A stretch of 64,000 bases of DNA, from sequence record PZ386971.1. One strand, given 5' to 3'. This stretch comes from a phage. Below the pieces are notes generated by a model that did no database searches, was not told where the DNA came from, and saw nothing but the letters and a program-made list of their open reading frames with translations. Positions 8,453-53,228 of this stretch are shown here, one piece after another. Made by a program: the position numbers and the translations under genes. Position 1 is the stretch's first letter. Each line of letters starts with the position of its first letter.

Positions 8453-8683
8453 CTAGTTCTTCAGATCATGGAAACAGTCGCCGAGGAATTGTATTTTGCC
8501 GTCGGTCAGGAATAGATGGCAAAATGATGCTGGATCAGTTGCATTCACCAGCAGGCTCGGTGTGAACGTAGGCTCAATAACATTGTTGTTCCACGACCAC
8601 ATCGGACCTTGGGTTTCGCCCTTAATGTGATATAGATGAAGCATATCACACCCAGGACAATGAAAATACAAGGAATCATCCAT
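8453..8683 (-). CDS. small Cys/His-containing hypothetical protein
   Basis: 76 aa with CPGC and further Cys/His. Confidence 0.4.
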   Translation of the reverse strand: MDDSLYFHCPGCDMLHLYHIKGETQGPMWSWNNNVIEPTFTPSLLVNATDPASFCHLFLTDGKIQFLGDCFHDLKN

Positions 8684-8718
8684 AGACAGAAGTTTAGGGC
8701 TCAGAAGCTATGTTATGA

Positions 8719-9006
8719 TCAACCATCTACAGTGGCTTCAGGATCGTAGGGGCGCAGTTCACCAACCAGTTTCGGAAAGAGTGCAATCCCGAACAGGTTG
8801 AAAGAACGCATAGTGCCGACCATTGCAACATCTTCCCCTTCCTCGATATCTTTCAGGGCGCACATTGGGTAATATTCATCGACCTCTGGGTCTTCCGTCT
8901 CACCATAGAGACCAAACGCTACCTCTTCTTTGATAAAGCGAGGAACCAAGATATCAAATAGGATAATGATGAATACCATAGGTGCTGCAGAACGGAGATA
9001 GAACAT
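8719..9006 (-). CDS. hypothetical protein
   Basis: 95-aa ORF. Confidence 0.4.
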   Translation of the reverse strand: MFYLRSAAPMVFIIILFDILVPRFIKEEVAFGLYGETEDPEVDEYYPMCALKDIEEGEDVAMVGTMRSFNLFGIALFPKLVGELRPYDPEATVDG

Positions 9007-9047
9007 AGCACAACCCTCCAGGTGAGGAGGGGCGAACCCCTCCGATG

Positions 9048-10379
9048 TTATAGGCCAAGAGCCTTTTCAAGGTCATCAAGGTCTTCAGTGTAAAGATCGA
9101 TGTCCTCTTTCTTACTTAATTCCTTGTGCTGTGCTTCAAGGTTCTCAATCTGCTTGAGTAGGCGCTCACGGGCATCCAGAGTAATAGACGACAGAGGCAT
9201 CTTGAACAACTCGTCAAGATCACCACCAAAGTCCGGGTAGTCCTGCATGAACAGAGACTTCAGCACGTCAATCTTTTGGCGGAGATCAACACGCGTCGCC
9301 CATTCAATGAACACCGCCCGGTCACCCAGCTTGCGGATCCTGTCTGCCATGTCCTTCAACAGATACTGGCGACGGTCTTCATACCGTGACAGGCGATAAT
9401 TGAAGAACGGCAGCAACATGTCCCGCCAACCAGAATAACGATGAATGACCCCGTCTTCATCCCAGGCCGTCCAAACAGGCTTGTTGGCTGAATACAACTT
9501 GAACATCTGCTCAACCTGATTATCATCCAGCTTGGACAGTTCGCCGCGCTTAAACACAACCGTGATATCCCAGCCATCTTCCGTCGTGTCGTTGGCGTAC
9601 TCGGTGAGGATACCTGCCTTGTACAGAGGCAGCAACACCTTGGTCTCATAGGTCTTGGCAAACCAACCCACTGGGACTTCGGTGATATGCAGGGTCGTGG
9701 CATTGACGCGACGGAAGATGCCGCGACTGTATGCTCTTCCTTCCTCAGTATAGCCTGTCTCTCCTTTGAAGCCGTTCCAGTACGGTTTTAAGTCTTTCGG
9801 GTCTTCGCCACGGAGAAGCGCTCTCAGGGCATTCAGCACGGACTTAACGCAATGACACGGGGTGTCGGTGGAATATCCGGTGCCGATACCATTGATCCCA
9901 TTCACCAGGAACATGGGTAGGATGGGCAGAAAGAACTTCGGCTCCAGTCTTTCTTCACCAAGGTAGTTGTATTCCAAAATACCCTCATCCTCCTTGCGGA
10001 AGATCTTGCGGATAACGTCAGATACAGCGACGGATATGTATCGGGCAGATGAAGCATCACGCCCCATGATAGAACCAAACTGGCCATCGCGGTCAAAGTA
10101 CGGGATGTTGTTCGTGCCTGGGAACCCCTGAGCCATGTTCACGATAGTGCCGCTCATGTTCTCACCACCAGACTTGTAGTTGGTGCGAGCGGCGGCGAAC
10201 ATACCAAGGCGGTCAACAATCTCCTCCTTGTTGTACTCAAGAGCAGCGAAAAGGATCTTGCGCTGGCTTGGCTTGAGGCTGTCGATCAGCTGAGGGATTT
10301 GACGGATGCTGTTGACCACAGAAAACTGCTTATGGTCAGTGTTGACAAAGTCCGTTACAGTAATGCTCTTAGCAACCAT
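9048..10379 (-). CDS. DNA topoisomerase II medium subunit (GyrA-like; T4 gp52-like)
   Basis: YKSGGENMSGTIVNMAQ resembles GyrA active-site region; start set at ATG 10379, 1 nt after the large-subunit stop, giving 443 aa. Confidence 0.75.
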   Translation of the reverse strand: MVAKSITVTDFVNTDHKQFSVVNSIRQIPQLIDSLKPSQRKILFAALEYNKEEIVDRLGMFAAARTNYKSGGENMSGTIVNMAQGFPGTNNIPYFDRDGQFGSIMGRDASSARYISVAVSDVIRKIFRKEDEGILEYNYLGEERLEPKFFLPILPMFLVNGINGIGTGYSTDTPCHCVKSVLNALRALLRGEDPKDLKPYWNGFKGETGYTEEGRAYSRGIFRRVNATTLHITEVPVGWFAKTYETKVLLPLYKAGILTEYANDTTEDGWDITVVFKRGELSKLDDNQVEQMFKLYSANKPVWTAWDEDGVIHRYSGWRDMLLPFFNYRLSRYEDRRQYLLKDMADRIRKLGDRAVFIEWATRVDLRQKIDVLKSLFMQDYPDFGGDLDELFKMPLSSITLDARERLLKQIENLEAQHKELSKKEDIDLYTEDLDDLEKALGL

Positions 10380-16416: not shown

Positions 16417-17982
16417 TTACTTGTACAGGCCTGTCACGTCAATGGACTTGTGCTGGCGGTTGTACTCGGCGGTGTAATCATCCAACACCAGGTATTCACA
16501 GCAGCGGATTTTGCTTGAACCAAAATCATCGGTGACCGACACGATGTCACGCGGGTTCAGCTTACAGCGAACGACACGCTGTCCCACAGAACCGAAACAC
16601 TCCTTCAGGTAGGCCAGGGAGCACACATGCAGACCATATGAACACAGTTCGGAGTTGTTGTCGTTCACGAATGAGCGAGCCATGCGCACGATAGTGCCTG
16701 GGGCGTTGCTGATCGTGTTGCTATGCTTGTCCATGTAGTTGCCGCGCACCGATTTGTAGAGGATGATGTCACCATCTTCGTCAATTTCGATGTCAGAGTA
16801 CGCCATGAACTCGTAGATGCGCCCAGACTGAACCAGAGAAGCTGACGGGTTCTGGAACATTTTGTCCATAAACTTCGCCATGCGGTCCAGGTTGTGGAAG
16901 TCACCCTTCAGCATCAGCGCCAGTACACGCTTGGCGATGGATGTGCCTGTGATGTCATGACCGGACCAGCGGACACGGTTGTCAGACACGTCTACCAGAC
17001 CAGCAGCGTACTTCGCGATGGCTTCACGAGGACGCATCAGCGAGTATGCCAGCTTCACGTCTTTGTCTTTGATCGCCTGTACGATGCGGTCATAGGCCGG
17101 GTGTGAAGTGGTGATCGTTTCCGGCTTGCCGTCAATCGCGATAACAACGCTGTCAGGCAGAATCAGGATCTGGTGTTCGTTCAGGAACACGTCCAGGTCT
17201 TTCGCGCCGAAGTCCTGCTTGGTCTTCTTATCATCAGCCACTTCTTCAACGTCTTTGACAGCGACGGCGAATTCTACAGAAGACAGAGCCAGACGCAGGG
17301 TGCGACCGAGGATGCCATCAAAGTAACCAACACGGCGACGGGCATCCAAGGATCCACGGATAGGATAGGTTTCCCCGTCAACCACAACGCTGATTTCAAC
17401 GTTGCTCGGAACTTTGTCCGCACCTTCTGACAGTGCCACAGAAATTTCTGCCATCTCGCCGATAGCTTCAACATCGAAAGCGCAACTATCACCTTCCACA
17501 GGAGTCAATTCAGACTTTTCAAAGAAAGCCCCTTTGAAATTGCCGTCGTTAGTGAGACACAGATACTTGTTGTGGTTCGGCAGATATGCCCCAACATACC
17601 ATTCTGTGCCATCTTTGTCTTTGGCCGTGCCGCCCGGTTGGACCTCGAATACTTCTTGTTCTTCCGGCTTGATAGGAGAGATCACAGTTACCTTGTTTTT
17701 CTCCTCGGTAATCCGGACCAACAGAGCGCGAGCAATGGTCTTGGCGGACACACCGTACACCTTGGCCAAGAATGCATTGCTGACATTACCTGCCGCCGAA
17801 TCCCTTTGGATATTGGCGATCTGATCTGTTGTCAGGGATTTCAGCGAAGTAGGGTCAACACCAATTTCCGTGTCGGAAACACGTTGTACAGTCGAGCGGG
17901 GTATGCCCAACAGAGTAGCAATTGCGCTCTGGCTTTTGCCTTCCTTCAAATACTTCAGGATCTTTTCGTCAATCTTGTTCAT
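16417..17982 (-). CDS. rIIB-like protein (N-terminal HTH)
   Basis: Directly downstream of the rIIA-like gene; N-terminal HTH-like segments; start set at MNKIDEK methionine, 32 nt after the rIIA stop. Confidence 0.5.
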   Translation of the reverse strand: MNKIDEKILKYLKEGKSQSAIATLLGIPRSTVQRVSDTEIGVDPTSLKSLTTDQIANIQRDSAAGNVSNAFLAKVYGVSAKTIARALLVRITEEKNKVTVISPIKPEEQEVFEVQPGGTAKDKDGTEWYVGAYLPNHNKYLCLTNDGNFKGAFFEKSELTPVEGDSCAFDVEAIGEMAEISVALSEGADKVPSNVEISVVVDGETYPIRGSLDARRRVGYFDGILGRTLRLALSSVEFAVAVKDVEEVADDKKTKQDFGAKDLDVFLNEHQILILPDSVVIAIDGKPETITTSHPAYDRIVQAIKDKDVKLAYSLMRPREAIAKYAAGLVDVSDNRVRWSGHDITGTSIAKRVLALMLKGDFHNLDRMAKFMDKMFQNPSASLVQSGRIYEFMAYSDIEIDEDGDIILYKSVRGNYMDKHSNTISNAPGTIVRMARSFVNDNNSELCSYGLHVCSLAYLKECFGSVGQRVVRCKLNPRDIVSVTDDFGSSKIRCCEYLVLDDYTAEYNRQHKSIDVTGLYK

Positions 17983-18013
17983 CTTGTAGTTCCCACGTTG
18001 GTTAACAGGACTA

Positions 18014-20770
18014 TTATGCCCTGATAATGGAATTTGAAATAACGTCCAAGTAATCCGAAGATTTTTCAATCGGGTTCAGGGCGCTTGGTTTGTAATTCTC
18101 TTTCAAGAACCGGACAACACGATGACGCTCGATGGTCAATCGGTTTTCCCGCCTTGCTTTCAATGACGGAGTCCTCGATATATCAAACGGTGTAAATCCA
18201 TGAAACCGCAACACATCCGAAGCGCATTCAAAGATCTGTAGCATCTGATGTTCTGAACGGAAGATCTTTTCGTCACGCTCGTTGGCGTACAAATTCACGT
18301 TAAGAGAATGTATTGTGTCCTGGAAATGGCTAAATCGACGCTTGTCATTGATTGAAACCGGGGCTTTCGCCAGGCTTTGGTAATGACGTACAGTCTGCTC
18401 ATCCAAGATATCGTCCACAACTTTCATTAACTTGTTGTAACGGCTGACCAATTTGCCATAACGATCGTCTTCAACATCACCAAACGCCTGATGAACCAGA
18501 TGGCTCCCGTATTTTAATCGATCCGCCCCAAGGCGCATGCGGCGGTATGATTCCAGTATGCGCTTGGCGCTATCGCGCTCCATCATAGGCTTCACGTTTT
18601 CCAACATGATCTTCAGGATTTCATCGATCGGTATGAAGACCTCTGGGAACTTCTTCATCATTGGCACGGATTTACGACGAGCCAAGAAGATTCGGTTGTG
18701 AACGTTCAACATATCGCTGATGTACACTGGCTTGCCTTCATCGTCGACACTGACTGCGTGCTCATACAGAGATTTACGAATACCCCGCGCCGCCGCAGTC
18801 GTCAACGTTCTGTCCATCACCTGATGGATACACGCATGGCCAGACACCTCAATATAGACGATGCGCTCGCCCTTGTTGATGATATCTGAGATCTGGTCGC
18901 CCGTTAGTTCTTCATACTGGTATATGTCGAAGTTGCTGCGCGTGAACGGAAACAGGCCGGGGTCTTTGGTGACCGGGGGCGTGACATACGACAGTTCGTT
19001 CATGAACTTGACTTCAGCAGGCTCCAACACCGCACTCAGCCAATCGACGAACTTGTCGGCGAAGCACAGATAATCAACCGTCGTTTCTTCTTTACCAATC
19101 CAAGTTTCAAAGAAATCATAGAGAGCCTGAGAATTCTTGAACGCAGGGTTGTCCTTAGATTGGTTGCGCTTGGTGACATAGGATGTGTTCGGTTTGGCCA
19201 CGATGACTATCGTCCCTGTATCTTTCAGCTGCTTGATCTTCAGGTTACGAGCACGAACACTATCTTCGATCACCACAGTAACATGCTGGCCGCGATCAAT
19301 CCACTTCTGGATTTCTGAAATGGTCAAATTACTGGACTCACCCCAGTCATAGAAGATCTCCATAGAGAACGGTGATGACAGCTCATTGAACGGCGCGGTA
19401 TGGTCATAATCGCGATCAATCTCAACAGGCAGCGGGTAACGGTAATATGAATCATGAAAGCGCTTGTCGGCCGGGTATTCCTTTTCAACCATCTTGCGGA
19501 ACCCACTGCCGAACATTTCACTCAGTTTTACCTTCTCCATATACAGGGCAAGAGGACCACGCTTACACGCCAGCTCCAGGTCACGCATCTTTTCTGTCAA
19601 GATTGCATTGGCGGTGCCCTTAAACTCCTCAGAGAGCGTCTCACGCGTGAATTCGTCATATGAAAGGTCTTCACGCGACGGTGGTACGTTCAGCGATCCA
19701 AGTTCGAAGAACGTATAGGACGATGGAAACTTGCTCATGATGGAAGCAGTGTCCGGGTCCAGCTGGTCCAGGTCAATCGGGTACGACACGCCACCCATTA
19801 CAGCATAATGGGTGTTCCCCTGGCCTTTCGGCTGGATGTACGTGTTGTTGACCTTGAAATCATAACTGATATCTTCCCAGCTGAAGCGGTATGAAGCGTT
19901 CTCAACAATTGGACGTTGTTCAGGGCGCATAACACGACCAAGACGGACCAGTTCATCGGAGAATGCAGAGAAACGAGCGTTCTTCACCGGGATCTTCACC
20001 GTCATACCGTTGAACTCATCGGTGTCTTCCGGTTTAGGATCACGGGTTTCAAGATCTTTGGTGATCAGATCAACAGTCGGGATGCGCTTGGCATTCAGGT
20101 ACATCAGGAAGCGATGGAGTTTACCGTCCATGCGGCTTTCCACAGTGAACGAATCCGATACCGCAAATGGTGATTTGGAGCCAAGACCGAATGCCCCAAT
20201 CTGATCATCATCTTCTTCCTTCGTACTGTGGAAGAGAGTGGTATACAACCCAGGCGTACGAATGATTTCACCATCTTCGCGACGGAACACTAGACCACCA
20301 TTATAGAACGCAGGCACGCCGATGACCTCAGCTGAGTCAGGGATCTCGTCTTCCTTGACCACCATGTTGCCTTCCAGCAGCACTTCATCTTCCTGCGCTG
20401 GGATAGGCTCGCCAATGATCTTCTCGAGTGGTAGACCGATGCCGTAATCACGGATTTCCAGCCATGGCTCAAAGTCATCAGGCAGATGCACAACAACCTG
20501 CTTACCCTTCGGTGCAAGGTATTTGCTATGGCGGGCAGGAGGCGGAGTGAGAGGCGCGTAGTGGGATGCTACCATACGGTGCATACGATCACGCATGCCA
20601 TGGGAGTCGATGGCGTTACAGACGGTTTCGCGCAGGGCTGCAGCCTCTTTGTAACGATACAATGATGAGAACAGAGTCTCAAACATCTTATCGTTCATCT
20701 TCACGTTGAACGCCTGCCCCTGAATGGAAGACGACGAGCGGATAAAGTGCTCGGACTTGCGCATTTTCAT
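18014..20770 (-). CDS. rIIA-like protein (GHKL/Bergerat ATPase domain)
   Basis: GHKL-type motifs ETVCNAIDSHG and GAFGLGSKSPF in N-terminal third of a 918-aa ORF. Confidence 0.6.
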   Translation of the reverse strand: MKMRKSEHFIRSSSSIQGQAFNVKMNDKMFETLFSSLYRYKEAAALRETVCNAIDSHGMRDRMHRMVASHYAPLTPPPARHSKYLAPKGKQVVVHLPDDFEPWLEIRDYGIGLPLEKIIGEPIPAQEDEVLLEGNMVVKEDEIPDSAEVIGVPAFYNGGLVFRREDGEIIRTPGLYTTLFHSTKEEDDDQIGAFGLGSKSPFAVSDSFTVESRMDGKLHRFLMYLNAKRIPTVDLITKDLETRDPKPEDTDEFNGMTVKIPVKNARFSAFSDELVRLGRVMRPEQRPIVENASYRFSWEDISYDFKVNNTYIQPKGQGNTHYAVMGGVSYPIDLDQLDPDTASIMSKFPSSYTFFELGSLNVPPSREDLSYDEFTRETLSEEFKGTANAILTEKMRDLELACKRGPLALYMEKVKLSEMFGSGFRKMVEKEYPADKRFHDSYYRYPLPVEIDRDYDHTAPFNELSSPFSMEIFYDWGESSNLTISEIQKWIDRGQHVTVVIEDSVRARNLKIKQLKDTGTIVIVAKPNTSYVTKRNQSKDNPAFKNSQALYDFFETWIGKEETTVDYLCFADKFVDWLSAVLEPAEVKFMNELSYVTPPVTKDPGLFPFTRSNFDIYQYEELTGDQISDIINKGERIVYIEVSGHACIHQVMDRTLTTAAARGIRKSLYEHAVSVDDEGKPVYISDMLNVHNRIFLARRKSVPMMKKFPEVFIPIDEILKIMLENVKPMMERDSAKRILESYRRMRLGADRLKYGSHLVHQAFGDVEDDRYGKLVSRYNKLMKVVDDILDEQTVRHYQSLAKAPVSINDKRRFSHFQDTIHSLNVNLYANERDEKIFRSEHQMLQIFECASDVLRFHGFTPFDISRTPSLKARRENRLTIERHRVVRFLKENYKPSALNPIEKSSDYLDVISNSIIRA

Positions 20771-21364: not shown

Positions 21365-21565
21365 TCACTTACGTTTGCGCTTGTTCTTTCCATAGGTCTT
21401 CGCCTTCTTCTTGCGGGTTACAGATGGACGACCATGTCCCGGTTCGCCGGGTGTGCCACCCTGAGTGTAACGACGCCCCCACATATCATCACCACGATGC
21501 GCGGCGACGATTTCCATTTCTGACAGCGCTAGCATAGCAGCAACAGCCGCAGATGATTTCTTCAT
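21365..21565 (-). CDS. small protein with hydrophobic N-terminal leader and Lys/Arg-rich tail
   Basis: 66 aa; N-terminal MKKSSAAVAAMLALSE; C-terminal RKKKAKTYGKNKRKRK. Confidence 0.4.
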   Translation of the reverse strand: MKKSSAAVAAMLALSEMEIVAAHRGDDMWGRRYTQGGTPGEPGHGRPSVTRKKKAKTYGKNKRKRK

Positions 21566-22017
21566 TTCGTTTCCCCCTTGGCAGCATAGGACAGTGCCTG
21601 AACAATCATTACAGCCAGATCGATCGGCGAGTAGGTGCTGTTCAGATCTTCTCGAACACTCTGCTCGATTTCTTCATCAGACTGGACCACAGGACAGTTC
21701 TTCCCCTGGCGACGGCGTTCTGTGTTGATCATATCACGCAGGAGCAGATCGGTGAAGGAGTACTCGTCAAAGTTCTCCAGGTATTTCTGAATCCCAGTGG
21801 ATACAGGGGTTGGCTCCGGTTCCTGTTCCCCAGGATCTTTCAGGGCAGCAACAGTGGCATCAATATCCCACAGAGGGTTCAGCAGTAACAGAAGATTAAC
21901 TGTTTCTCCTGACTCTGAAGTCGGGTTCTTTCCCAGCACCTTGTACAGATTCTTCAGGGTGCTGTCGAAGGTCAGAACGGTCTGCGCCAGTTCTTCATAA
22001 GTTGGTTTGGTAGTCAT
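21562..22017 (-). CDS. hypothetical protein
   Basis: 151-aa ORF. Confidence 0.45.
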   Translation of the reverse strand: MTTKPTYEELAQTVLTFDSTLKNLYKVLGKNPTSESGETVNLLLLLNPLWDIDATVAALKDPGEQEPEPTPVSTGIQKYLENFDEYSFTDLLLRDMINTERRRQGKNCPVVQSDEEIEQSVREDLNSTYSPIDLAVMIVQALSYAAKGETK

Positions 22018-22128: not shown

Positions 22129-22542
22129 TTAGTCTTCAGATTCTACTTTGCCGCCTCGTAGATCCCGAACTGGTTTACCGTCCGGTGCCATCACATAAAT
22201 GGTGTTGATTGTCTCAAACCAAGACAGCTGGTCAACACCCTCGGTGTATGGAGTCACCGGAACAGAAGTCTTGACCTCTTTGCCTTTCGTGTTCGGATGT
22301 TCAACCACATCCAAGAACGCACATTTCCCGCTCGGAAGGATAACACCATCAGTAAACAGCACGATCTTCTTGCGAGGGTTGCTGGCCTCACCCAGGCACA
22401 CCACCAGATGATGGATCATCTCGGGGCGGTCAATCAACAAGTCGTCTTTGATAATCCCTTGCTTGATAGCAGAGATCACCACTTCATCCAACAGAGCCTG
22501 CTGTTGGTCCAGTGTCAGGGATTCAGTGAGTTTCACGCTCAT
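22129..22542 (-). CDS. hypothetical protein
   Basis: 137-aa ORF. Confidence 0.45.
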   Translation of the reverse strand: MSVKLTESLTLDQQQALLDEVVISAIKQGIIKDDLLIDRPEMIHHLVVCLGEASNPRKKIVLFTDGVILPSGKCAFLDVVEHPNTKGKEVKTSVPVTPYTEGVDQLSWFETINTIYVMAPDGKPVRDLRGGKVESED

Positions 22543-22546
22543 GACA

Positions 22547-23116
22547 TCAGCCTTTGAAGTTAATCGGTTTCTGAATACCAGCGTCGAACGCGGCCTGGGT
22601 ACGGGTATCGCTCACCACCTGGCAAGTCTTGTCAAGGTCGATGCGCGGGTAGCCGAACATGCCAGCAATCAACGAACCAGGGAACTGAGCCAGCTTGGTT
22701 TCGTATATTGTGCAGATATCCAGCTTCTTGGTCTGGCTGATGCGGAATTCATCACGCCCAGAACTGATCACCACCTGGATCTCTTTGTACAGGCTGGAAT
22801 CGAACTGAATATTCTGCTCCTGGATCCACTGCATGACGGCCTTGGAACCATCAGCGCCATAACGCCCTTCGAACGTGCCTTTGATCACTTCCTTCAGACC
22901 GTCTTTATACATGTCAGGAATCTGCGCCGTCTCCTGAACTTTGAGCGTGTAGTTGCTCAGGTAGTTCTCGGAGTCTTTGTTGAACTTCCTAACCTGCTGC
23001 TCAGTGCGGTTGAAGTCGTTGAAGTAGCTGATGACTGTACCGATGCCGAGAATCACTACACCCAGCAAAGCCAAACCAATTATCCAACCTGTTGCAATAC
23101 CCTTAGATTGAGACAT
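22547..23116 (-). CDS. LemA-family membrane protein
   Basis: N-terminal TM helix then soluble domain ending in FPGSLIAGMFGY, resembling the conserved LemA C-terminal motif. Confidence 0.5.
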   Translation of the reverse strand: MSQSKGIATGWIIGLALLGVVILGIGTVISYFNDFNRTEQQVRKFNKDSENYLSNYTLKVQETAQIPDMYKDGLKEVIKGTFEGRYGADGSKAVMQWIQEQNIQFDSSLYKEIQVVISSGRDEFRISQTKKLDICTIYETKLAQFPGSLIAGMFGYPRIDLDKTCQVVSDTRTQAAFDAGIQKPINFKG

Positions 23117-23134
23117 TCTTACTTCCTCTTTTGA

Positions 23135-24247
23135 TTAAAAATTAAACGGATAACGACGACCACCATTGTACTCCATTCGCTGCAATATGAAAATTGCGGT
23201 GAATGGTAAGCAACCCAGCAGAACAATAACCACAACTTCCCAGGTCTTGAGTTCCCGCCACTTCAGGTACTCCATTTCCTTCATCTCAACGCGGTTGTAG
23301 CCTTTGGTGATGTTAGCGACAACATCAGCCATGACACCGACGCCCATGTCGTGGCCTGTGAGAGTCATGCCATTGCGAGAGTGTAGTTCACGGTTATACA
23401 TACCATCAGCGAACGAAGTGCTCTTACCCCAGTTGATCTTCAGATCTTTGCTGATGTCGGTCACGACGATAACGTCGTTCTTTTTACCACCATCCCAAGC
23501 ATAGACCAAGCCCTGGAAGTATTCAACTGGCTGACCGGATGTCACAACCCAGACGATATTGACCTGACGTGAAGCACCTAATGTTTTCAGAGTATTGTTC
23601 AGATAGTCGTTCCAGTATGTGGTCGGTAACGCCAGGCCGGACACATTCAACACACGAGTGACACGATAGTAGTCATAGACCTCAGGGTACTTGGGAATCT
23701 TGTCTTTGAAGCGCTCAGCAAACTGCTGGTCCGAGCGAGAGAACAGAGAGTCCTTGTTACCCAGCACATAGTTCATGTAGGAATGCTCACGGGCTGCGGG
23801 TTCGCCGATCTGAACCTGCGCCCAGCGCGGCGGTTGACCAAGACCACGGCGATCAATACGGTCAATCGTCAGATTACCGACAGTAGTCAACACATCCCAG
23901 TCCACGTCATATGAATGCTCATAACATGTACTGCAATGGCGAGTGCGGGTACAGGACTTGCTACTGCCGGAGCCAGAGCACGATGTGGTGTAGTAGCAGT
24001 TGCATTCATATGAATGCTCACAGCTCACCTTATTCCGCTCCTTTGCAGTGACGTACCCGTTCAGGATCTCAACATCCCCTGAACTGCCAAGGGAGAACGC
24101 AGCATAAGCCCCCGCCTGAATCAGACAGGATAGCACCACTACAATCGCGGTCGCTATCAGAGTCTCTTTCGGCTCATGGGTCTTGCGGTGGTAGGCCACA
24201 AACAGGATAGCCAGTACCAATGGCACACCAAACAGGAGGTAGATCAT
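23135..24247 (-). CDS. membrane protein with N- and C-terminal TM helices and Cys-rich extracytoplasmic domain
   Basis: 370 aa; hydrophobic helices at both ends; Cys-rich segment CEHSYECNCYYTTSCSGSGSSKSCTRTRHCSTC; adjacent to LemA-like gene. Confidence 0.5.
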   Translation of the reverse strand: MIYLLFGVPLVLAILFVAYHRKTHEPKETLIATAIVVVLSCLIQAGAYAAFSLGSSGDVEILNGYVTAKERNKVSCEHSYECNCYYTTSCSGSGSSKSCTRTRHCSTCYEHSYDVDWDVLTTVGNLTIDRIDRRGLGQPPRWAQVQIGEPAAREHSYMNYVLGNKDSLFSRSDQQFAERFKDKIPKYPEVYDYYRVTRVLNVSGLALPTTYWNDYLNNTLKTLGASRQVNIVWVVTSGQPVEYFQGLVYAWDGGKKNDVIVVTDISKDLKINWGKSTSFADGMYNRELHSRNGMTLTGHDMGVGVMADVVANITKGYNRVEMKEMEYLKWRELKTWEVVVIVLLGCLPFTAIFILQRMEYNGGRRYPFNF

Positions 24248-24630
24248 TTGGATTCACCGACGAGCTGCGCCTTGGTCATCCCAAGGAGTTGATCTTTATG
24301 CTCAGGATTGGCACCGTTCTTTAACAACAAATCCCAACGCTCTTCATGGTACTGTGGGTCCAGTGCTTCATCAAATGTGATGTGGTGGCGGAACATAACA
24401 GTTGCCACTGAATGGACACAATGAGCGGTTGCACGCTTCAGAGTATGCTCTGATGTGATGTGCTTTTGGTATTCAATCCCCATCAAATCCAGTTCTCTGA
24501 AAAGACAAGATAATGACAGGACACCCTGCGAATGCAACGCGACGATAGTGTCTTTCTTAGGGTGCAGCATACCATCTGTTTCTTTCATGAACAGATCATA
24601 CAGATACTGCTTGTATTCAGACTGTGTCAT
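24244..24630 (-). CDS. hypothetical protein
   Basis: 128-aa ORF. Confidence 0.45.
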   Translation of the reverse strand: MTQSEYKQYLYDLFMKETDGMLHPKKDTIVALHSQGVLSLSCLFRELDLMGIEYQKHITSEHTLKRATAHCVHSVATVMFRHHITFDEALDPQYHEERWDLLLKNGANPEHKDQLLGMTKAQLVGESK

Positions 24631-24700: not shown

Positions 24701-24743
24701 AAAGAAAGGGGAACGGGCTAATATTAACCCATTCCCCTTTATT
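24701..24743. terminator. intrinsic terminator hairpin
   Basis: ggggaacggg...cccattcccc stem flanked by A-rich and T-rich runs. Confidence 0.4.
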
Positions 24744-24970
24744 GAAGAACGCAATCCGCAGTCAGATTACTTTTTCTTCAGCTCTTCCAGCTTGGCTTCA
24801 ATTTGGTCCAGAATCTCTTTACCTTTCTGGACGATGGCTTCACCATCTTGCGCGTGTTTACGGAAGACCAAAGCACCAGCGATGAAGCCGACAACCGCGC
24901 CAGGAAGCGCATAAACCAGCAGATCTTGTAACATGATAATATCCTCGCTTTATAGGCGAGGATATTTATA

Positions 24971-26206
24971 TCAGCGTTTCAAGAGTGCCATGAGGTTGAC
25001 GCTGCTGGACTTCGGCTTGTCCTCAACCTTGCGCACAGGCATCTTCAGGTTCGTACATACCTCGGATGGCTCCCAGCGCGTACCCTTTTGCAGGTGCCAG
25101 ATATGCAGAGGAACACCAGTCTCAAAGAACACAGGCATCTTCCACTTCTGGACGCCTGGAACGTGCCCTGCAGGAGCCTTTTCGCACAACAGGGTATCTG
25201 GCAGCCAGAGCGAACGGGCTTCCCAGAGCGCTGCGCAGGAGTATTCAGGCCAGACGCGTTCCATGTAGTCTATTTCATCCCAGGTACGCTCTGCGTCCCA
25301 CCCGATGTAACGGGTATTCTTCAGTCGGAAGAATTTCTTCAGCCAACAAGCACCGGAGGTTTCAAAGTTCAGACGGTTGATGAACGTCAGGTGTCCGAAC
25401 TCAGCCACACAATCCTGGAACGCCTGCTCAAGGTCGGCCTCAAGGATGTCACACTCTTCATCCGTGATAGGGCAACCGTTGATCTTTTTCTTCCCGTGTT
25501 TAGTCACCCAATCGTCACGGTTGGACAAGAACGCCGCGCCATTACGGTTGGACTCGCTTCCATCACGATCACGCAGCATGAAGCCAGGGACGTCAATGGT
25601 GTATTCGTTCCCGAAGACCATGTTCAGGGCTTCCAGGAAGTTCCAGGCGCTCAGGCGACCGAAGTATTTCCAGGACATCGCCGTGTCCCACAGCTGGGTG
25701 AATTGTTCTGTCTTATCGATGCACACCAACATCCCACGGAAAGCGTCATATTGAGTACGGCCAGCCAGCCAGTCAATATAGGACTGAACACACGGAATCA
25801 TCTTGGACTTGCGGTAGCGGCAATCGGTATCGAATCGCATGCGATCAAAGTTCAGATTATACCAATCAGAGAAGCGCTGCATCTCTTCCTTAGACTGAGG
25901 CGGCACAGGGAACTCACTGTAGATCGTCCACGGCCCGACGGCGTTATAGCAACAACCCCACAGGAATGCCATCCAGATCTTGCGCTCGACTTTCTGTTCG
26001 AGGCTGATGCCTTCAGTGACTTCGATCGCATAGTCCATCAGACGCATCTGCTGGTTGTGCTCTTCTGTGTAGGACAGCGCCTCCACCCAAGCCTTGAGCA
26101 GGTACATGCGATTCTCAGGCTTGCGATAATCAACAGCCAGGTCAATCGGGTACTTCCATTCAGCCGGAGGTGTATAGCCCGTCGGCATTTTAGATAAATG
26201 ATGCAT
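24971..26206 (-). CDS. putative alpha-glutamyl/putrescinyl-thymine pyrophosphorylase-like protein (function tentative)
   Basis: 411-aa Trp/Tyr-rich ORF with protein-like composition; the antisense ORF is Arg/Leu-rich; function inferred from neighbourhood. Confidence 0.4.
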   Translation of the reverse strand: MHHLSKMPTGYTPPAEWKYPIDLAVDYRKPENRMYLLKAWVEALSYTEEHNQQMRLMDYAIEVTEGISLEQKVERKIWMAFLWGCCYNAVGPWTIYSEFPVPPQSKEEMQRFSDWYNLNFDRMRFDTDCRYRKSKMIPCVQSYIDWLAGRTQYDAFRGMLVCIDKTEQFTQLWDTAMSWKYFGRLSAWNFLEALNMVFGNEYTIDVPGFMLRDRDGSESNRNGAAFLSNRDDWVTKHGKKKINGCPITDEECDILEADLEQAFQDCVAEFGHLTFINRLNFETSGACWLKKFFRLKNTRYIGWDAERTWDEIDYMERVWPEYSCAALWEARSLWLPDTLLCEKAPAGHVPGVQKWKMPVFFETGVPLHIWHLQKGTRWEPSEVCTNLKMPVRKVEDKPKSSSVNLMALLKR

Positions 26207-26567: not shown

Positions 26568-26767
26568 TTTGGTTCCTTGAATATTTTATAGCCAGCAGCG
26601 CCGATAGCCATAATCGCGCCGATACAATACAACATGGTCAGGTTCATCTTCTCTGAGGTTGTTAAGTCCAGAGGGGTGAAATGATAGGCTAGGGCAGTAC
26701 ACATTGAAACGGCTGCCATAACCAGACCAATGAACAACAGATAATTAGACAACCGTTTCATGATCAC
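26564..26767 (-). CDS. small membrane protein
   Basis: 67 aa, two hydrophobic helices. Confidence 0.4.
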   Translation of the reverse strand: MIMKRLSNYLLFIGLVMAAVSMCTALAYHFTPLDLTTSEKMNLTMLYCIGAIMAIGAAGYKIFKEPK

Positions 26768-27681
26768 CCCTTCTTCATCAGGTCAAGGAGAGAGCGCGAC
26801 GCTGCCTTCGTTGCTTCTGGCTGGGCGCTCGCCTTGGTTTTAGTTTTGGATGCCTTCTGCGGCTTCTCAGGGACTCTGTGCGCCAAAGGATCCTGGCCGC
26901 CGATTTCACGAGTCATCGGATTGGTTTCACAGTAGGCGTAGAAGTCTTTGGTGTCCATGTTAACTTCACGCAGTTCGGACCGTATCTGATGACAAATCGC
27001 ATTACCCACAACCCACAGCGGGGCGTCGTATGGGAGCACCGCCAACTCGGACTGCTGTTTGGTCGTGAACTCCTGGGTGTTGGTCTCTGGCGCTTTATAC
27101 AGGATATCCTGTCCGCTGTAATCATCAACAGCCACAGTGAAGCCCAGCGCCAGCATTTCGGCCTTCGACTTCTCAAACTCCTTGGAGTAAGATTCGTTGC
27201 GTGACCAGCCGGAGTTCCCTGCTTCTTTACCAGATCGACCACGGATACGAGCATCGTACTGATAGCGGTCGGGGTACGCAAAGTACAGCAGCGCCAATGA
27301 TTCAATCGGATAGTTCTTGAACATCCATTCAGGACGCCATTTGTCCGACAGCATGAGGGGTTCACCCTCACACACCAGAGTGTATCCCTGAACCAACCAG
27401 CACTTGATTAGATCACGAGCAATATCGCCTGAGCCTGTAGCAGCATGGATTGCATCCATTGAAGTCCAGGAAGCCAGGCCGGATTTGTTAGACACGGTGT
27501 ACTGTCCAACGAAGATTAACTTCAGCTCTCCGAACTTCAGGCCAAACGGGCGAGTCTTGTCACCAACGGTGTAGGTCAGTTCGGTAGGCTCCAGCTTCGT
27601 ACGGAGCCATTCGATGAACTGGACCACTCTCGTACCCTTGCCCGTGGCCGAGGTGCCTTTCACTACGATAATTTTTGCCAT
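26764..27681 (-). CDS. P-loop kinase (candidate 5-hydroxymethyl-dU DNA kinase)
   Basis: Walker A GTSATGKGT at N-terminus; 305 aa. Confidence 0.55.
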   Translation of the reverse strand: MAKIIVVKGTSATGKGTRVVQFIEWLRTKLEPTELTYTVGDKTRPFGLKFGELKLIFVGQYTVSNKSGLASWTSMDAIHAATGSGDIARDLIKCWLVQGYTLVCEGEPLMLSDKWRPEWMFKNYPIESLALLYFAYPDRYQYDARIRGRSGKEAGNSGWSRNESYSKEFEKSKAEMLALGFTVAVDDYSGQDILYKAPETNTQEFTTKQQSELAVLPYDAPLWVVGNAICHQIRSELREVNMDTKDFYAYCETNPMTREIGGQDPLAHRVPEKPQKASKTKTKASAQPEATKAASRSLLDLMKKG

Positions 27682-36655: not shown

Positions 36656-36744
36656 TGGCGGAAGGTGAAGGATTCGAACCTTCGGGGGCTAAAAGCCCCA
36701 CTCGATTAGCAGTCGAGTCCCTTAAACCTCTCGGGCAACCTTCC
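36656..36744 (-). tRNA. tRNA-Ser (anticodon GCU), class II with long variable arm
   Basis: Hand-folded cloverleaf: acceptor GGAAGGT/ACCTTCC, anticodon loop CTGCTAA, T-arm GAAGG-TTCGAAT-CCTTC, encoded CCA. Confidence 0.75.
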
Positions 36745-36964
36745 AATTTGGACGGGCTTCACACCCGATTGAGCATTTGATCTGCTGTAGCCCAACTCCC
36801 CGCGCTTCTCAGCGCCGATTGGTTAACTGGCGACCAGTGCCTTCTGGTTCGATCTCCTGGAACTTTACAGGCTTTGCGCCCGACCATTTCTGGAAGTTGG
36901 GGCATCGTTTCCGATGTGGAGTCACCCCATTTTATACACAGCTGGCTGCAACGCTTACTGTGTT

Positions 36965-37048
36965 TGGTGTGAGTGGATGGATTCGAACCACCGCGCTGTT
37001 ACGGGGAGATTTACAGTCTCCTGCATTCGACCGCTCTGCCACACTCAC
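36965..37048 (-). tRNA. tRNA-Tyr (anticodon GUA), class II
   Basis: Acceptor GTGAGTG/CACTCAC, anticodon loop CTGTAAA, T-loop GGTTCGAATCC, long variable arm, CCA encoded. Confidence 0.7.
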
Positions 37049-37305
37049 ATTTGGTCTGCCGCTGCGTGCTGGGCCACGCTCGAGGACATCGGCCATCCTT
37101 CCTCAGCTAATCCACGCAGCGGTAGATTTGTATCAGAGTGTCCGGTGTAGCAACCCGTGAGGTGCGCACTACTGTAGCCTCTACACTCTGAATTTGGTGG
37201 GCGTTACTATCGTCGTCTTCGGATTCCGTTCGGCTATTGGACAGAGGCTTGGAGCTTGTCGGTCGCGTACTTTATGCCTATTCACTTTCGTTCACACCCA
37301 TTGTC

Positions 37306-37381
37306 TGGCGACGATGGCAGGACTTGAACCTGCGACATACGGTTTAACAGACCGCCGTTCTACCGACTGAACTACATCGTC
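37306..37381 (-). tRNA. tRNA-Asn (anticodon GUU)
   Basis: 76 nt; acceptor GACGATG/CATCGTC, anticodon loop CTGTTAA, T-arm GCAGG-TTCAAGT-CCTGC, CCA encoded. Confidence 0.75.
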
Positions 37382-37552
37382 TTGCAAATCACTATACCAT
37401 ATAAAGTTTATTGAACAAACATTTATTTTACAACAAACTGTATTGGCGGGGTCTGAGGCTTTTCACCTCACCTGCTGGGTTTGGCCGCCCAGCCGTTCTC
37501 TATGAGGATTCACTGTCCGGACAGCTATCCATTAAACTATCGCCCCTCAATA

Positions 37553-37629
37553 TGGTGATCCTGATTGGGTTTGAACCAATGACCAATGAATTATGAGTTC
37601 ACTGCTCTAACCGACTGAGCTACAGGACC
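37553..37629 (-). tRNA. tRNA with CAU anticodon (elongator Met or Ile-lysidine type)
   Basis: 77 nt; acceptor GGTCCTG/CAGGATC with G1-C72 pair, anticodon loop CTCATAA, T-arm ATTGG-TTCAAAC-CCAAT, CCA encoded. Confidence 0.7.
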
Positions 37630-44417: not shown

Positions 44418-44452
44418 CCTAGATGAAACGAACACATTTAGGGGTATTTGAA

Positions 44453-47400
44453 ATGGCTAATAAACCAACACAGCCTGTTTTCCCTCTCGGTCTGGTGGCT
44501 GAAGAGCAGTCTACTTTGGCTGGTGTCGTCAACAAGGGTACGATTGAGCATGGACCAGATGCTGTCCTGACTTTACCCGAGGGTAATGCCAGCGCAGGAC
44601 TCCCGTCTTCCGTTCGCTACAATGCCGACTCCGACGAATTTGAGGGCTTCTATGAAAATGGTGGATGGTTGCCGCTGGGTGGCGGTGGTATCCGCTGGGA
44701 AGTCCTTCCGCATGCCTCTACGGTAATGCTCACTGAAGGGCGAGGCTATCTCATTAATAATACCACAGGGGCATCTACAGTGGTTCTCCCTTCCCCTACG
44801 CGTATTGGGGATTCCGTTACTATTTGTGATGCTTATGGGAAATTTGCCACTTACCCATTGACCGTGTCTCCTTCTGGAAATAATTTGTATGGCTCCACTG
44901 AAGACATGGCTATAACAACTGATAACGTATCAGCAACGTTCACTTGGTCTGGGCCTGAACAAGGTTGGATTATTACATCCGGCGTCGGTCTTGGCCAAGG
45001 CCGTGTCTACAGTCGTGAAATCTTTACAAAAATTTTGGCGTCTGAAACAAGTACTGTCACTCTCAATACTCCACCAACAATCGTGGACGTGTATGCTGAC
45101 GGAAAACGCCTTGCGGAATCCAAATATTCACTAGATGGGAATGTAATCACTTTCAGTCCTTCTTTGCCAGCCAGCACAGAACTTCAGGTGATTGAATATA
45201 CTCCTATTCAATTGGGTAATGGCGGTGGTTCTAGTTCTTCTACGATTACTTGGGTCTATAATGGGGGTTCAGCGATTGGCGGTGAAACCGAAATCACGTT
45301 GGACGTCGTTGTTGATGATGTTCCGGCCATTGATATAAACGGAAGTCGTCAGTATAAAAATCTGGGATTCACATTCGATCCATTAACCAGTAAAATCACT
45401 CTGGCGCAAGAACTGGAACCAGAAGATGAAGTTGTTGTAATTATCAATGGAACACCAAACATCTATAATCAAATTGATCATACTTTGCGGGAAGTGGCTC
45501 GTGTAACCAATGTTAAAGATACAGAGGTCGTTTATTTTAGTGTTGGTGCTGTGCTAAGCGGGTATAAAGTTATCTATGATAAAGTAACACAGAGATCATA
45601 TTTTATTCCAGAGCTACCGACTGGAACCACGGCAGTCAGCCTTAGTTCTTCGGCTGTACTTGTGCATTCTGCTGGTAGTGTTGATCTGGGCGCATTAGCC
45701 GTATCTCGTGAGGAGTATGTGACCTTACCTGGTTCATTCGATACAGGTGTAACTGTTAATACCAAGAATGAGTTGGTTGTGAGTAACGATATTAAATATC
45801 GTTGGGATGGTTCTGTACCCAAAGTAGTCCCTCCAGAATCTACCCCATTGGGTACAGGAGGTGTTGGTCCAGGGGCATGGCTTGTAGTTGGTGTTGTTGG
45901 ATTAGAGCAACGTTTAGCCTCCTGGAAAGGTTCTTCTCTTATTGATTCCGGTAGTCTGTCTCTTTACAAAAAGAGCGGTGTATTCGGTGATGGTGGGAAT
46001 GTATCCGATAAATATCAGGTTGTTCTACATTCAGATGGGTTCTGGTACAAGTACAATGGGACACTACCTGTTAGTTATGGTGCTGCCCCAGACTCTTCTT
46101 GGACTAACGTTGGTAAGCTAACAGGGTTTAATGAACACTCACCTGAGAATTTTGGTGCAATCCCCAATGACCCTAGTTTTGACTGTTTACCTGCTATAAA
46201 ACTAGCTATAGCCACAGGTACATTAAATCTGAATGGGAATTCTACCTACCACGTAACGGATGAGGTTGTTATACCTTCTTACTTACGTGGGAATCTAAAC
46301 GGGGCAACAATTAAAGCAATTGGCTCCGTATGGCCTACGTTAAAAGCTGTTGTACGCGTTAGTAAATTTCCTGTCGGTACAGCAACAGTGGATGTGGCTA
46401 ATACAGAGAATCAAGTGCGAGGATTACGCTTAATCGGTAGCTTAAACGTAGACTGTGCAGATATTGCATCATATGGTTTTTATGCACGTCTTCTGTGTGC
46501 AGAATCTGAGATGGGTAGCATCTATGCATATAATGCTAATAGATATGGCATTGTAATGTTTGCTTGCTGGTATTTTCAAATGGGCACTCTCCATGCAAAC
46601 AACTGTGCAAGGGGTATGGCATTAGGTTATTCAACAGAAGGTGAGCAAGGGGATACCTATGTGAATGCTACACACTTCCCTCACATTAGTGCATGGGGTA
46701 CTGATAAGTCTACGGGACTAGGTTATGACCCAATCACGGATGATGCGAGTAAATATACAATAGGTGCTGGTATTATCTTAGGTCGTGGTTTGTCTACCAG
46801 TGTTGGTGTGATTTGCTCTGAGAATACGGCAGGTGCTGGGGTAGTAACAATGGACCCTGCTGCGTGGGACATTGGGGTCATGTACTGTGAGGGTAATAGT
46901 AAAGACTTTACTCAAGAGGGTGAACCCAAGGTGTCATTGCTGTCATCCAAGGCCAACAGTGAAAGTCATACGCTTACCATCTCCACACTCCACCTTTCCG
47001 CAGGTTGTGGCATTTTAACCAGAAGCAATCAAGAGCGTGTGCTAATCAGAAGTCTATATCGCTTTGATAACGCAAAAACCTTCCACTCTTACTGCACAGC
47101 AGACACAGTAGAGGTTGGTAGCAGCAACTACTATGTACTTAACGGGCATAATTACAATGCACCTGCTGCACTTATTAAGGAACCGCTCAATGTAGACTTT
47201 GTGCGTTCAGGGTTGACTTTAAGTGAGTGGACATCTACAGTTATCGGTCATTTTGCTGGTAGTACAGCAGAACAACAGCTTTATGTTAAGCTCCCAGCAA
47301 GTCCCAGCGGCCTAGATTTACAGATAGATAGTGAGGATGGGACGGAATATATCACTGTAACTGGTACAGATTTTAAAGTCTCTCTAACTAAGAAAAGATT

Positions 47401-47506
47401 GCCTAGTAAACTGTATGAGATAAGGATTGGTGGGGTGTCTACAGTAGCTGTTACCGATTGTTCTATTCTAGTCAGAAGTAAAAAAGGTGATTGGTATTAC
47501 TGGTAG
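44453..47506 (+). CDS. tailspike protein A (N-terminal anchor region, shared ~130-aa module, beta-helix-like C-terminal part)
   Basis: Start set at MANKPTQ downstream of promoter and leader hairpin; shared module at about aa 375-510. Confidence 0.65.
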   Translation: MANKPTQPVFPLGLVAEEQSTLAGVVNKGTIEHGPDAVLTLPEGNASAGLPSSVRYNADSDEFEGFYENGGWLPLGGGGIRWEVLPHASTVMLTEGRGYLINNTTGASTVVLPSPTRIGDSVTICDAYGKFATYPLTVSPSGNNLYGSTEDMAITTDNVSATFTWSGPEQGWIITSGVGLGQGRVYSREIFTKILASETSTVTLNTPPTIVDVYADGKRLAESKYSLDGNVITFSPSLPASTELQVIEYTPIQLGNGGGSSSSTITWVYNGGSAIGGETEITLDVVVDDVPAIDINGSRQYKNLGFTFDPLTSKITLAQELEPEDEVVVIINGTPNIYNQIDHTLREVARVTNVKDTEVVYFSVGAVLSGYKVIYDKVTQRSYFIPELPTGTTAVSLSSSAVLVHSAGSVDLGALAVSREEYVTLPGSFDTGVTVNTKNELVVSNDIKYRWDGSVPKVVPPESTPLGTGGVGPGAWLVVGVVGLEQRLASWKGSSLIDSGSLSLYKKSGVFGDGGNVSDKYQVVLHSDGFWYKYNGTLPVSYGAAPDSSWTNVGKLTGFNEHSPENFGAIPNDPSFDCLPAIKLAIATGTLNLNGNSTYHVTDEVVIPSYLRGNLNGATIKAIGSVWPTLKAVVRVSKFPVGTATVDVANTENQVRGLRLIGSLNVDCADIASYGFYARLLCAESEMGSIYAYNANRYGIVMFACWYFQMGTLHANNCARGMALGYSTEGEQGDTYVNATHFPHISAWGTDKSTGLGYDPITDDASKYTIGAGIILGRGLSTSVGVICSENTAGAGVVTMDPAAWDIGVMYCEGNSKDFTQEGEPKVSLLSSKANSESHTLTISTLHLSAGCGILTRSNQERVLIRSLYRFDNAKTFHSYCTADTVEVGSSNYYVLNGHNYNAPAALIKEPLNVDFVRSGLTLSEWTSTVIGHFAGSTAEQQLYVKLPASPSGLDLQIDSEDGTEYITVTGTDFKVSLTKKRLPSKLYEIRIGGVSTVAVTDCSILVRSKKGDWYYW

Positions 47507-47513
47507 TATAATA

Positions 47514-47542
47514 AAAAGCCCCCAATTTTGGGGGCTTTTATT
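47514..47542 (+). terminator. intrinsic terminator after tailspike A
   Basis: gccccc-aatttt-gggggc hairpin then TTTTATT. Confidence 0.6.
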
Positions 47543-47570
47543 ATATAGAGTTTACTGTTTTCATTACCCT
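47536..47570. repeat. conserved ~35-bp element downstream of tailspike terminators (copy 1)
   Basis: ttttatatagagtttactgttttcattaccct; near-identical copy at 55206-55240. Confidence 0.5.
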
Positions 47571-47762
47571 GATTGATAATGCTGTTGGCTCTCTCGGGTT
47601 GTCATCAAACGGGTATAAGAACTTTATAGGTGATATCAATGATGGGTCAGCGTATTTTTATTTCGCCAACATAGATGGATCAAGAATATCGGGGTCGTCT
47701 GTTTATGATGGGTGGGGTGATGTTGGTATACATTTTGAAATGTGTCTGGAATAGGAGTGTCA

Positions 47763-47857: not shown

Positions 47858-47860
47858 ATC

Positions 47861-50832: not shown

Positions 50833-50840
50833 TCTTCAAA

Positions 50841-53177: not shown

Positions 53178-53228
53178 TTACACAGCCCCCTTAACTGGGG
53201 GCTACCATAGAAAAACAATGAGGTTTAT

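Follow-up and report, generated by a model that had tools for sequence, protein, structure and literature searches.

The gene pair and its bacterial affinities

The DNA considered here (hereinafter the window) is a stretch of 64,000 nucleotides (nt) from record PZ386971.1, the genome of a virulent phage of the family Ackermannviridae, Aglimvirinae/Agtrevirus type. A preliminary description made from the sequence alone had singled out two adjacent minus-strand genes in what it took to be a lytic phage, and both observations hold: one open reading frame (ORF) at 22547–23116 (−) codes for a protein of 189 amino acids (aa) and a second at 23135–24247 (−) for one of 370 aa (hereinafter the partner). 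They are separated by an 18-nt spacer (23117–23134, −) in which a GAGGA ribosome-binding site can be read 7 nt before the ATG of the shorter gene. The 3-kb region around the pair displays 93–97% identity to the Escherichia coli phages RPN242 and YX22 and about 90% to Shigella phage Ag3. Judging from their large homolog families and strong PHROG matches, both ORFs are evidently real genes and not chance ORFs: the shorter falls in PHROG 1383 and the longer in PHROG 2087 (“unknown function”; E 1.5e-162; 376 homologs), with homolog matches down to E 1e-116 and 1e-248, respectively. The long plus-strand ORFs that overlap the pair are taken to be antisense shadows. We posit that the two genes very probably constitute a diverged, phage-adapted version of a bacterial LemA–TPM membrane module.

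Profile comparisons identify the 189-aa protein as a distant homolog of LemA, thereby bearing out the relationship claimed in the preliminary description. When a profile of the phage family was compared by hhalign with a genuine bacterial LemA profile (29 aligned proteins retrieved with the sequence of 2ETD), the two aligned over 137 columns with 96.9% probability and an E-value of 1.3e-10. Likewise, a profile built from 45 relatives and run against the PDB sequences recovered the LemA structure 2ETD as its top match (E 4.9e-4), in an alignment of near full length (profile positions 31–159 against chain residues 10–155). LemA is also the commonest Pfam family among these relatives (nine of the 45 match, all below threshold, with a best E of 0.0016), and several phage-type ORFs are matched directly by the bacterial LemA hidden Markov model. 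The protein further shares the LemA architecture, in which a helical domain of about 150 aa comes after a single N-terminal transmembrane (TM) helix. As claimed earlier, both the TM helix and a LemA-type motif are found: the former comprises aa 12–30 (23027–23083, −; hydropathy 2.58; a helix in the AlphaFold2 (AF2) model), while the latter, FPGSLIAGMFGY, spans aa 145–156 (22649–22684, −) and preserves the C-terminal LemA motif (FPxxxxAxxFGF). This motif lies inside the region homologous to the bacterial helical domain, as delimited by hhalign and a HMMER alignment to 2ETD (aa 24–161; 22634–23047, −). The AF2 model is all-helical, with a predicted local distance difference test (pLDDT) score of 85.

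Some of the evidence does weigh against a LemA assignment. The Pfam LemA model (PF04011) scores the window protein at just 13.8 bits (E 0.051), over aa 125–158 only, as opposed to a gathering threshold of 26.2 bits; the ENYPxLKA motif, invariant in bacteria, is absent from the phage family, falling in an 18-residue gap of the hhalign alignment; and a Foldseek search of the PDB with the model places 2ETD at rank 7 (E 0.93; template-modeling score 0.32–0.39), albeit with the lowest root-mean-square deviation of the top matches. As nothing in that Foldseek search was significant, we base the LemA call on the sequence profiles; helical bundles discriminate poorly in such structural comparisons. 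The phage family has, in addition, features of its own, namely an invariant GRYGxDGSKAxxQWIQEQN block and a C-terminal extension (aa 162–189; 22550–22633, −) whose Cys165 covaries with Cys135 in the alignment. A weak match of aa 9–112, i.e., the TM and first-helix region, to the PADLOC model for the dynamin-like defense protein LeoBC (E 8.3e-4, 16.6 bits) is probably compositional.

The partner had been described as a two-TM, Cys-rich protein, with a TM helix at either end. The terminal helices and the Cys-rich part are indeed present, but the number of hydrophobic helices is three. The first (aa 1–19; 24191–24247, −; hydropathy 2.48; AF2 helix 2–20) lacks a positively charged n-region; the second, likewise seen in hydropathy and AF2 (aa 29–47; 24107–24163, −), is preceded by the basic loop HRKTHEPKE; and the third (aa 338–356; 23180–23236, −) is followed by a short basic tail ending in GGRRYPFNF. 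Between the second and third helices the AF2 model (pLDDT 91) predicts two domains. The first is a β-rich ectodomain with long hairpins (aa 55–200; 23648–24085, −; AF2 strands 57–74, 79–91, 98–109 and 114–121), for which structure searches, including Foldseek, returned no credible structural relative. All cysteines of the partner are restricted to aa 76–108 within this larger domain, where they contribute to a Cys/His cluster (aa 76–111; 23915–24022, −) that combines the covarying pairs C84/C105 and C90/C99 with the near-invariant residues C76, H78, C82, C108 and H111. The second is an α/β domain (approximately aa 201–330; 23258–23647, −) bearing a near-invariant W-x-GGKKND motif (nt 23474–23494).

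We identify this C-terminal half, on the basis of its modeled structure, as a TPM domain with the characteristic α-β-α sandwich. Of the two families besides LemA that the preliminary description had named for comparison, TPM is thus supported at the fold level: the top Foldseek match of the partner is the TPM structure 9H70 (probability 0.98), with 2KPT also recovered (0.89), and about 120 residues align with TPM structures at 2.7–3.1 Å despite a sequence identity of 11–16%. Among 47 relatives of the partner, TPM_phosphatase (PF04536) is the top Pfam family, being matched by 11 of them with a best E of 1.8e-4; these matches stay under the gathering threshold of 22.1 bits, as with the relative P0129 at 18.1 bits. 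The strand-loop motif of the TPM core can also be aligned between the partner and a Thermotoga TPM protein. Against this assignment stands the absence of any Pfam TPM match for the window partner itself at E≤1. The partner profile retrieved only a chance match to LolA from the PDB sequences, and its hhalign comparisons with single bacterial TPM sequences were weak (40% for Thermotoga, nothing for Neobacillus), for which reason the TPM call is carried by the evidence of the fold. The other family, DUF2207, has no match in either the window protein or its 47 relatives. DUF2207/YciQ-type membrane proteins are another common neighbor of bacterial LemA and resemble the partner in having a large ectodomain between TM segments encoded next to LemA; nevertheless, given the lack of a profile match, the partner is of the TPM type and not the DUF2207 type.

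The preliminary description had also claimed that bacterial LemA genes sit in two-gene membrane operons, an arrangement that we observed in two genomes. In both Thermotoga and Neobacillus, a gene called as TPM_phosphatase by Pfam lies directly after LemA, its start overlapping the LemA stop; the Thermotoga LemA in question is the very protein crystallized as 2ETD (TM0961). The bacterial LemA-adjacent TPM proteins begin with a signal peptide and continue with the TPM domain, a single TM helix and a tail rich in Gly and Arg whose last residue is aromatic, and the phage partner ends alike, with TPM domain, TM helix and the tail noted above. It is this combination—a TPM gene directly following LemA in bacteria and coding for a protein with a comparable C-terminal end—that leads us to read the phage pair as a diverged LemA–TPM module. 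Thus, bacterial LemA and the phage protein have in common a size of about 190 aa, a single N-terminal TM helix, a helical domain with profile-level homology, a shared C-terminal F-P-G-x-[IL]-[IF]-A-x-M-F-G-[YF] motif and a gene neighbor coding for a TPM protein anchored in the membrane, with a TM helix and a basic or Gly-rich tail at its end. The phage protein differs in its sub-threshold Pfam score, its lack of the ENYPxLKA motif and its possession of the family-specific block, Cys pair and C-terminal extension. The modules also differ in gene order, with LemA first in bacteria and the partner usually first in phages, although the phage PTm5 and one other locus keep the bacterial order. Finally, the phage partner is larger, with two N-terminal TM helices in place of a signal peptide, and it carries an extra Cys-rich β domain.

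With the TPM family at large (TLP18.3, Psb32, MOLO-1; structures 3PW9, 5ANP, 7TBR, 2KPT, 2KW7, 8C7I and 9H70), the partner shares the α-β-α sandwich and, like the membrane-tethered TLP18.3, Psb32 and MOLO-1, would display it on the membrane, probably on the extracytoplasmic side. It departs from the family in its low identity and sub-threshold Pfam score, its fusion to the novel Cys-rich β domain and its own W-x-GGKKND motif. On a contig of a Kaiserbacteria metagenome-assembled genome (MAG), a phage-type pair is followed about 2 kb downstream by a canonical bacterial-type LemA (8542–9123; E 5.8e-60 to the bacterial profile).

The cysteines offer a clue to the topology of both proteins. In counts uncorrected for kinship, Cys135 and Cys165 of the LemA-like family are both present in 61 sequences, both absent from 34 and present singly in two; the corresponding numbers for the partner are 101, 19 and 0 for C84/C105, and 106, 10 and 4 for C90/C99. 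Such loss in pairs points to disulfides and, therefore, to their formation in the periplasm. Taken together with the signal peptides of the bacterial TPM proteins and the basic N-terminus that precedes the TM helix of bacterial LemA, the covarying pairs suggest, by analogy, that the globular domains of both phage proteins are periplasmic. An extracytoplasmic placement of the TPM domain is also predicted from the three TM helices of the partner and their flanking charges. Tempering this reconstruction, the charge bias flanking the TM helix of the LemA-like protein is ambiguous, and the argument is founded on Cys covariation, with statistics that ignore kinship, and on bacterial analogy. An alternative interpretation of the Cys/His cluster as a cytoplasmic zinc ribbon was rejected as the primary one, given the pairwise loss of the cysteines and the signal peptides of the bacterial TPM partners. 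The residues C76, H78, C82, C108 and H111 could possibly form a metal site.

Phyletic distribution and accessory status of the pair

The pairing of the two genes is near-obligate and widely distributed across phages. Across 82 phage loci (80 IMG/VR contigs together with RPN242 and Ag3), 81 have the LemA-like ORF directly downstream of, and on the same strand as, the partner; in the one remaining locus the contig breaks off at the partner stop. Hence, on the two points by which the preliminary description proposed to judge its claim, a LemA relationship is detected and the genes are co-conserved in related genomes. The partner-first arrangement also occurs in the Vibrio cholerae phage ICP1, Erwinia phage RAY and Pseudomonas phage HRDY3. 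The LemA-like gene comes first in Tenacibaculum phage PTm5 (locus L115, 3204–4951) and in locus L092 (341–1992), an order that may be ancestral. A collection of annotated phages has 502 and 487 records, respectively, for the two proteins, with near-identical counts per host genus, which puts the pair in some 490–500 sequenced large phages. Identity within the family stays at 35–45% between phages whose hosts are Enterobacteria, Vibrio, Acinetobacter, Delftia, Sinorhizobium, Pseudomonas and Tenacibaculum. At BLAST sensitivity, no third gene is co-conserved around the pair outside Ackermannviridae.

The carriers have large genomes, almost all of those listed exceeding 100 kb and the smallest listed being 85.7 kb. 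They include Ackermannviridae, T4-like Aeromonas phages, T5-like Vibrio phages, ICP1, nucleus-forming Erwinia and Serratia phages, giants of the RaK2/GAP32 type, PhiW-14, and phages of Acinetobacter and Sinorhizobium. An exhaustive profile search recovered 2,128 cluster representatives at E≤1e-3, of which 738 reach E≤1e-30; the best 150 of the 2,128 are nearly all full-length, at about 350–390 aa. By comparison, a search of the genomes of 185,579 species yielded only 21 loci, mostly MAG contigs, 15 of which retain the pairing. The copies in Achromobacter and Variovorax genomes have surroundings (RecA, an MscS-like gene and many unknown ORFs) that are ambiguous between prophage and chromosome.

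Two sets of observations run counter to a strict pairing. A few high-GC bacterial contigs (L101, L105 and L106) code for a Cys-rich TPM partner lacking a LemA-type neighbor, indicating that solitary bacterial versions of the partner exist. Conversely, Prevotella phage Lak-B8 has a LemA-like gene (locus L113, 3327–3872; E 8e-47 to the phage profile) with no TPM-type partner detected within 3.5 kb under either genetic code 11 or 15. In the giant Bacillus phage G, gp144 (NC_023719.1, 83892–84575) shows a weak tblastn match to the TPM half of the partner (E 2e-4, 25% identity) and is the sole case seen in a phage of a Gram-positive host.

Two natural instances of absence establish that the module is accessory, horizontally mobile, lost as a unit and dispensable in the laboratory. 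The first comes from ICP1, where only eight of the 82 genomes, all of them 2017 isolates from the Democratic Republic of the Congo (DRC), possess the pair, even though the genes that flank it are found in 82/82 at ≥99% identity; the closest DNA relative of the ICP1 copy is from an Aeromonas phage, at 71%. This distribution marks the pair as belonging to the small accessory genome of ICP1. In ICP1 2017_DRC_32 (locus L087, 1800–5912), the pair lies inside a run of eight genes without “previously called GPxx” tags. The second is Salmonella phage Maynard, a viable Kuttervirus that, compared with Vi01 (locus L110, 2842–4198), bears a clean deletion of 1,357 bp; it removes the partner beyond about aa 115, i.e., its C-terminal two-thirds, along with the whole LemA-like gene; a 131-aa annotated remnant of the partner persists as Maynard_8.

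Potential functions of the module

Few bacterial membrane proteins without an established function are as widespread as LemA and TPM proteins. The TPM domains characterized to date are accessory or assembly factors of membrane complexes: TLP18.3 and Psb32 of photosystem II, MOLO-1 of an acetylcholine receptor, and AscF of the CIII–CIV supercomplex. Phosphatase activity or the binding of metals or nucleotides has been reported for some members, the activity being disputed even in these, and a comparative genomic study proposes that TPM domains act in a chaperone-like capacity, helping membrane-linked complexes to assemble, and not as phosphatases (PMC11237479). Both lemA and a TPM gene show induction in a Flavobacterium mutant under envelope stress. 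The literature searched contained neither mechanistic work on bacterial LemA–TPM nor any publication on LemA or TPM proteins of phages.

Against this background, our tentative proposal for the whole, held with somewhat less than even confidence, is that the phage-adapted LemA–TPM module acts as an envelope or inner-membrane maintenance complex; the specific role in envelope maintenance we regard as possible and slightly less secure. The partner would cross the inner membrane three times and expose its disulfide-stabilized β domain and its TPM domain to the periplasm, while the LemA-like protein would be anchored through its one N-terminal helix with the helical domain facing the same compartment. 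The two genes would be expressed together, consistent with the short spacer carrying its own ribosome-binding site within a tight four-gene block, and their products may function as one complex. During infection, this complex might act on the host inner membrane and periplasm as a chaperone- or scaffold-like accessory, which would accord with the part proposed for TPM domains in the building or stabilization of complexes linked to membranes, and so keep the envelope and membrane working while large lytic phages complete their long infection cycle. The module would be a horizontally mobile fitness accessory, neither part of the virion nor a holin. We favor a role in maintenance or remodeling because the module has been preserved in phages whose Gram-negative hosts differ greatly and is limited to large virulent phages. 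Of the three functions that the preliminary description had suggested, namely superinfection exclusion, lysis timing and envelope remodeling, the last thus agrees best with the data. Detracting from this proposal, the link to envelope stress is a single correlative transcriptome.

Two labels already attached to these genes in databases imply other functions. The LemA-like protein is called a “virion structural protein” in PHROG 1383, for Vi01_204 and in many RefSeq records, and “LemA” is already named in a few (RPN242 gp191 and one UniRef name). The partner is labelled “hypothetical” or “membrane protein” in all records examined, and the Vi01 record attaches the tag “host lysis protein” to the partner gene. 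The structural label may derive from mass spectrometry of ViI particles. That the 189-aa protein is a structural component of the virion nevertheless appears highly improbable. It is anchored by a TM helix, probably forms a periplasmic disulfide and descends from bacterial LemA; its gene lies among DNA-metabolism genes, distant from the structural block; and it is deleted in the viable Maynard and absent from 74 of the 82 ICP1 genomes. It is also missing from the 39-protein virion proteome of LIMEstone1—particles of which additionally yielded rIIB and DNA ligase, such that contaminants do occur—as well as from the bands analyzed for Ag3 and the mass-spectrometry table for RAY/Deimos-Minion.

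Also improbable, if less so, is that the proteins are accessories of lysis timing, acting through their two periplasmic domains on the triggering of the holin or on lysis inhibition in the manner of T and RI of phage T4. The T4 T/RI pair works through two periplasmic domains, and the occurrence of a TM anchor with a large periplasmic domain in both of our proteins is reminiscent of it; the Vi01 tag, the proximity of rIIA/rIIB and the fact that r-type genes are also non-essential fit this picture. Yet searches of Pfam and PHROGs detected no similarity to holin or antiholin families beyond one weak match in a TM segment of a single relative; the pair is lacking in those same 74 ICP1 genomes; and outside Ackermannviridae no lysis gene is linked to it. 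With 370 aa, a TPM domain and two folded ectodomains, the partner is also unlike known holins, making a holin function of the pair unlikely. Moreover, the holin TeaA (gp137) and antiholin ArrA of ICP1 are unrelated genes located elsewhere in its genome (PMC7182436). The RPN242 annotation has no lysis cassette in its first 50 kb. Accordingly, the evidence gathered supports neither the “virion structural protein” nor the “host lysis protein” label, and the partner gains an identity as a TPM protein.

Three further possibilities invoke phage–phage or phage–host conflict. A periplasm-facing complex could mediate superinfection exclusion by blocking genome entry or cell-wall penetration by later phages, as is the case for Imm and Sp of T4, which are small membrane proteins. 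The predicted periplasmic domains of both membrane proteins, the non-essential and accessory nature of the pair (as for exclusion genes in general) and its carriage by virulent phages facing co-infection are in line with such a role. However, we consider it doubtful: known exclusion proteins are lineage-specific and fast-evolving, whereas the present family keeps the above-noted identity across very different hosts, an indication of a universal envelope target; the homologs of the family are bacterial genes of a housekeeping type; and Pfam, PHROGs and PADLOC reveal no similarity to known exclusion proteins. Equally doubtful is a counter-defense function, in which the complex neutralizes or masks membrane-associated abortive-infection systems or defense sensors of envelope perturbation, comparable to the action of T4 rII against Rex. 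Here one may point to the accessory, mobile character of the pair, its dispensability on laboratory hosts, its location about 1.8 kb upstream of rIIA/rIIB in Ackermannviridae and its presence in one geographic set of ICP1 isolates (8/82), a pattern typical of arms-race genes. On the other hand, it is fixed in all Ackermannviridae subfamilies and many unrelated lineages with a conserved sequence, unlike most anti-defense genes, which are narrow in distribution, and no homology to known anti-defense proteins was detected, the sole PADLOC match being the weak and probably compositional one to LeoBC (E 8e-4). The 370-aa partner has no PADLOC match, and an NCBIfam search added nothing for the pair.

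A more speculative proposal, to which we assign a similarly low likelihood, is that the LemA–TPM complex oligomerizes via the long-hairpin, disulfide- and metal-stabilized β domain into an inner-membrane assembly shaped like a ring or channel. This would actively gate or sense events at the envelope, and might thereby keep out incoming foreign DNA or disarm abortive-infection systems that are triggered at the membrane. Were this true, the pair would represent a previously unrecognized, broad class of phage envelope-control device and reveal the function of bacterial LemA–TPM. More generally, rIIA/rIIB, Imm, Sp, the holin T and the antiholin RI of T4 exemplify non-essential, envelope-located functions of large virulent phages, and the pair resembles them in this respect; no sequence or fold relationship to any of these was detected, T4 itself lacks the pair, and the family extends far more widely across phage lineages.

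The wider interest of the pair is in a diverged two-gene module having been captured and retained by many unrelated lineages of large virulent phages. Among these are Ackermannviridae that serve in phage therapy and biocontrol, certain isolates of the cholera phage ICP1, Erwinia phages that form a nucleus, and RaK2-like giants. In the literature searched, the identity of the partner as a TPM protein and the conservation of the module as such across phages are undescribed. Natural plus/minus comparisons, of the DRC isolates with the rest of ICP1 and of Maynard with the rest of the Kuttervirus phages, make the function of the module directly testable in tractable systems.

Genomic neighborhood and other features of the window

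In the window, the pair is part of a tightly packed block of four minus-strand genes that lies between thymidine-hypermodification genes and rIIA/rIIB. Upstream of the partner, a 128-aa gene (24244–24630, −) overlaps the partner start with its stop (ATGA) and is conserved alongside the pair in Ackermannviridae only; downstream, an Ackermannviridae-specific 137-aa gene (22129–22542, −) starts 4 nt past the LemA-like stop. Just upstream of the block is a strong terminator-like hairpin of 16 pairs with a T-run (24705–24740, −), which separates it from a small TM gene (24767–24934) and probably marks the start of a new transcription unit; no convincing sigma-70 promoter was seen after the hairpin. 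Downstream of the block, a 151-aa protein (21562–22017, −) gives a full-length match to Pfam DUF7181 (E 9e-65) and is the product of a conserved Ackermannviridae gene.

The hypermodification genes just upstream code for a protein of the amino-acid:DNA transferase/aGPT-pyrophosphorylase type (24971–26206, −; Pfam ADDT, E 7e-60) and a P-loop nucleotide kinase (26764–27681, −), which are typical of ViI-like phages. The rIIA (918 aa) and rIIB (550 aa) homologs are encoded on the same strand about 1.8 kb downstream of the pair (16417–20770, −; PHROG E = 0 and 3.5e-278, respectively), a linkage that is not kept outside Ackermannviridae.

Elsewhere in the window, a cluster of four tRNA genes (36656–37629, −) comprises Ser-GCT, Tyr-GTA, Asn-GTT and Met-CAT. 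Four consecutive tailspike genes (44423–55145, +), coding for proteins of 1027, 809, 829 and 638 aa, have a GC content of 0.41–0.45 as compared to about 0.50, and their PHROG matches are limited to the N-terminal anchor regions. This low GC, together with the confinement of the matches to the anchors, suggests that the receptor-binding domains of the tailspikes have been swapped and were horizontally acquired.

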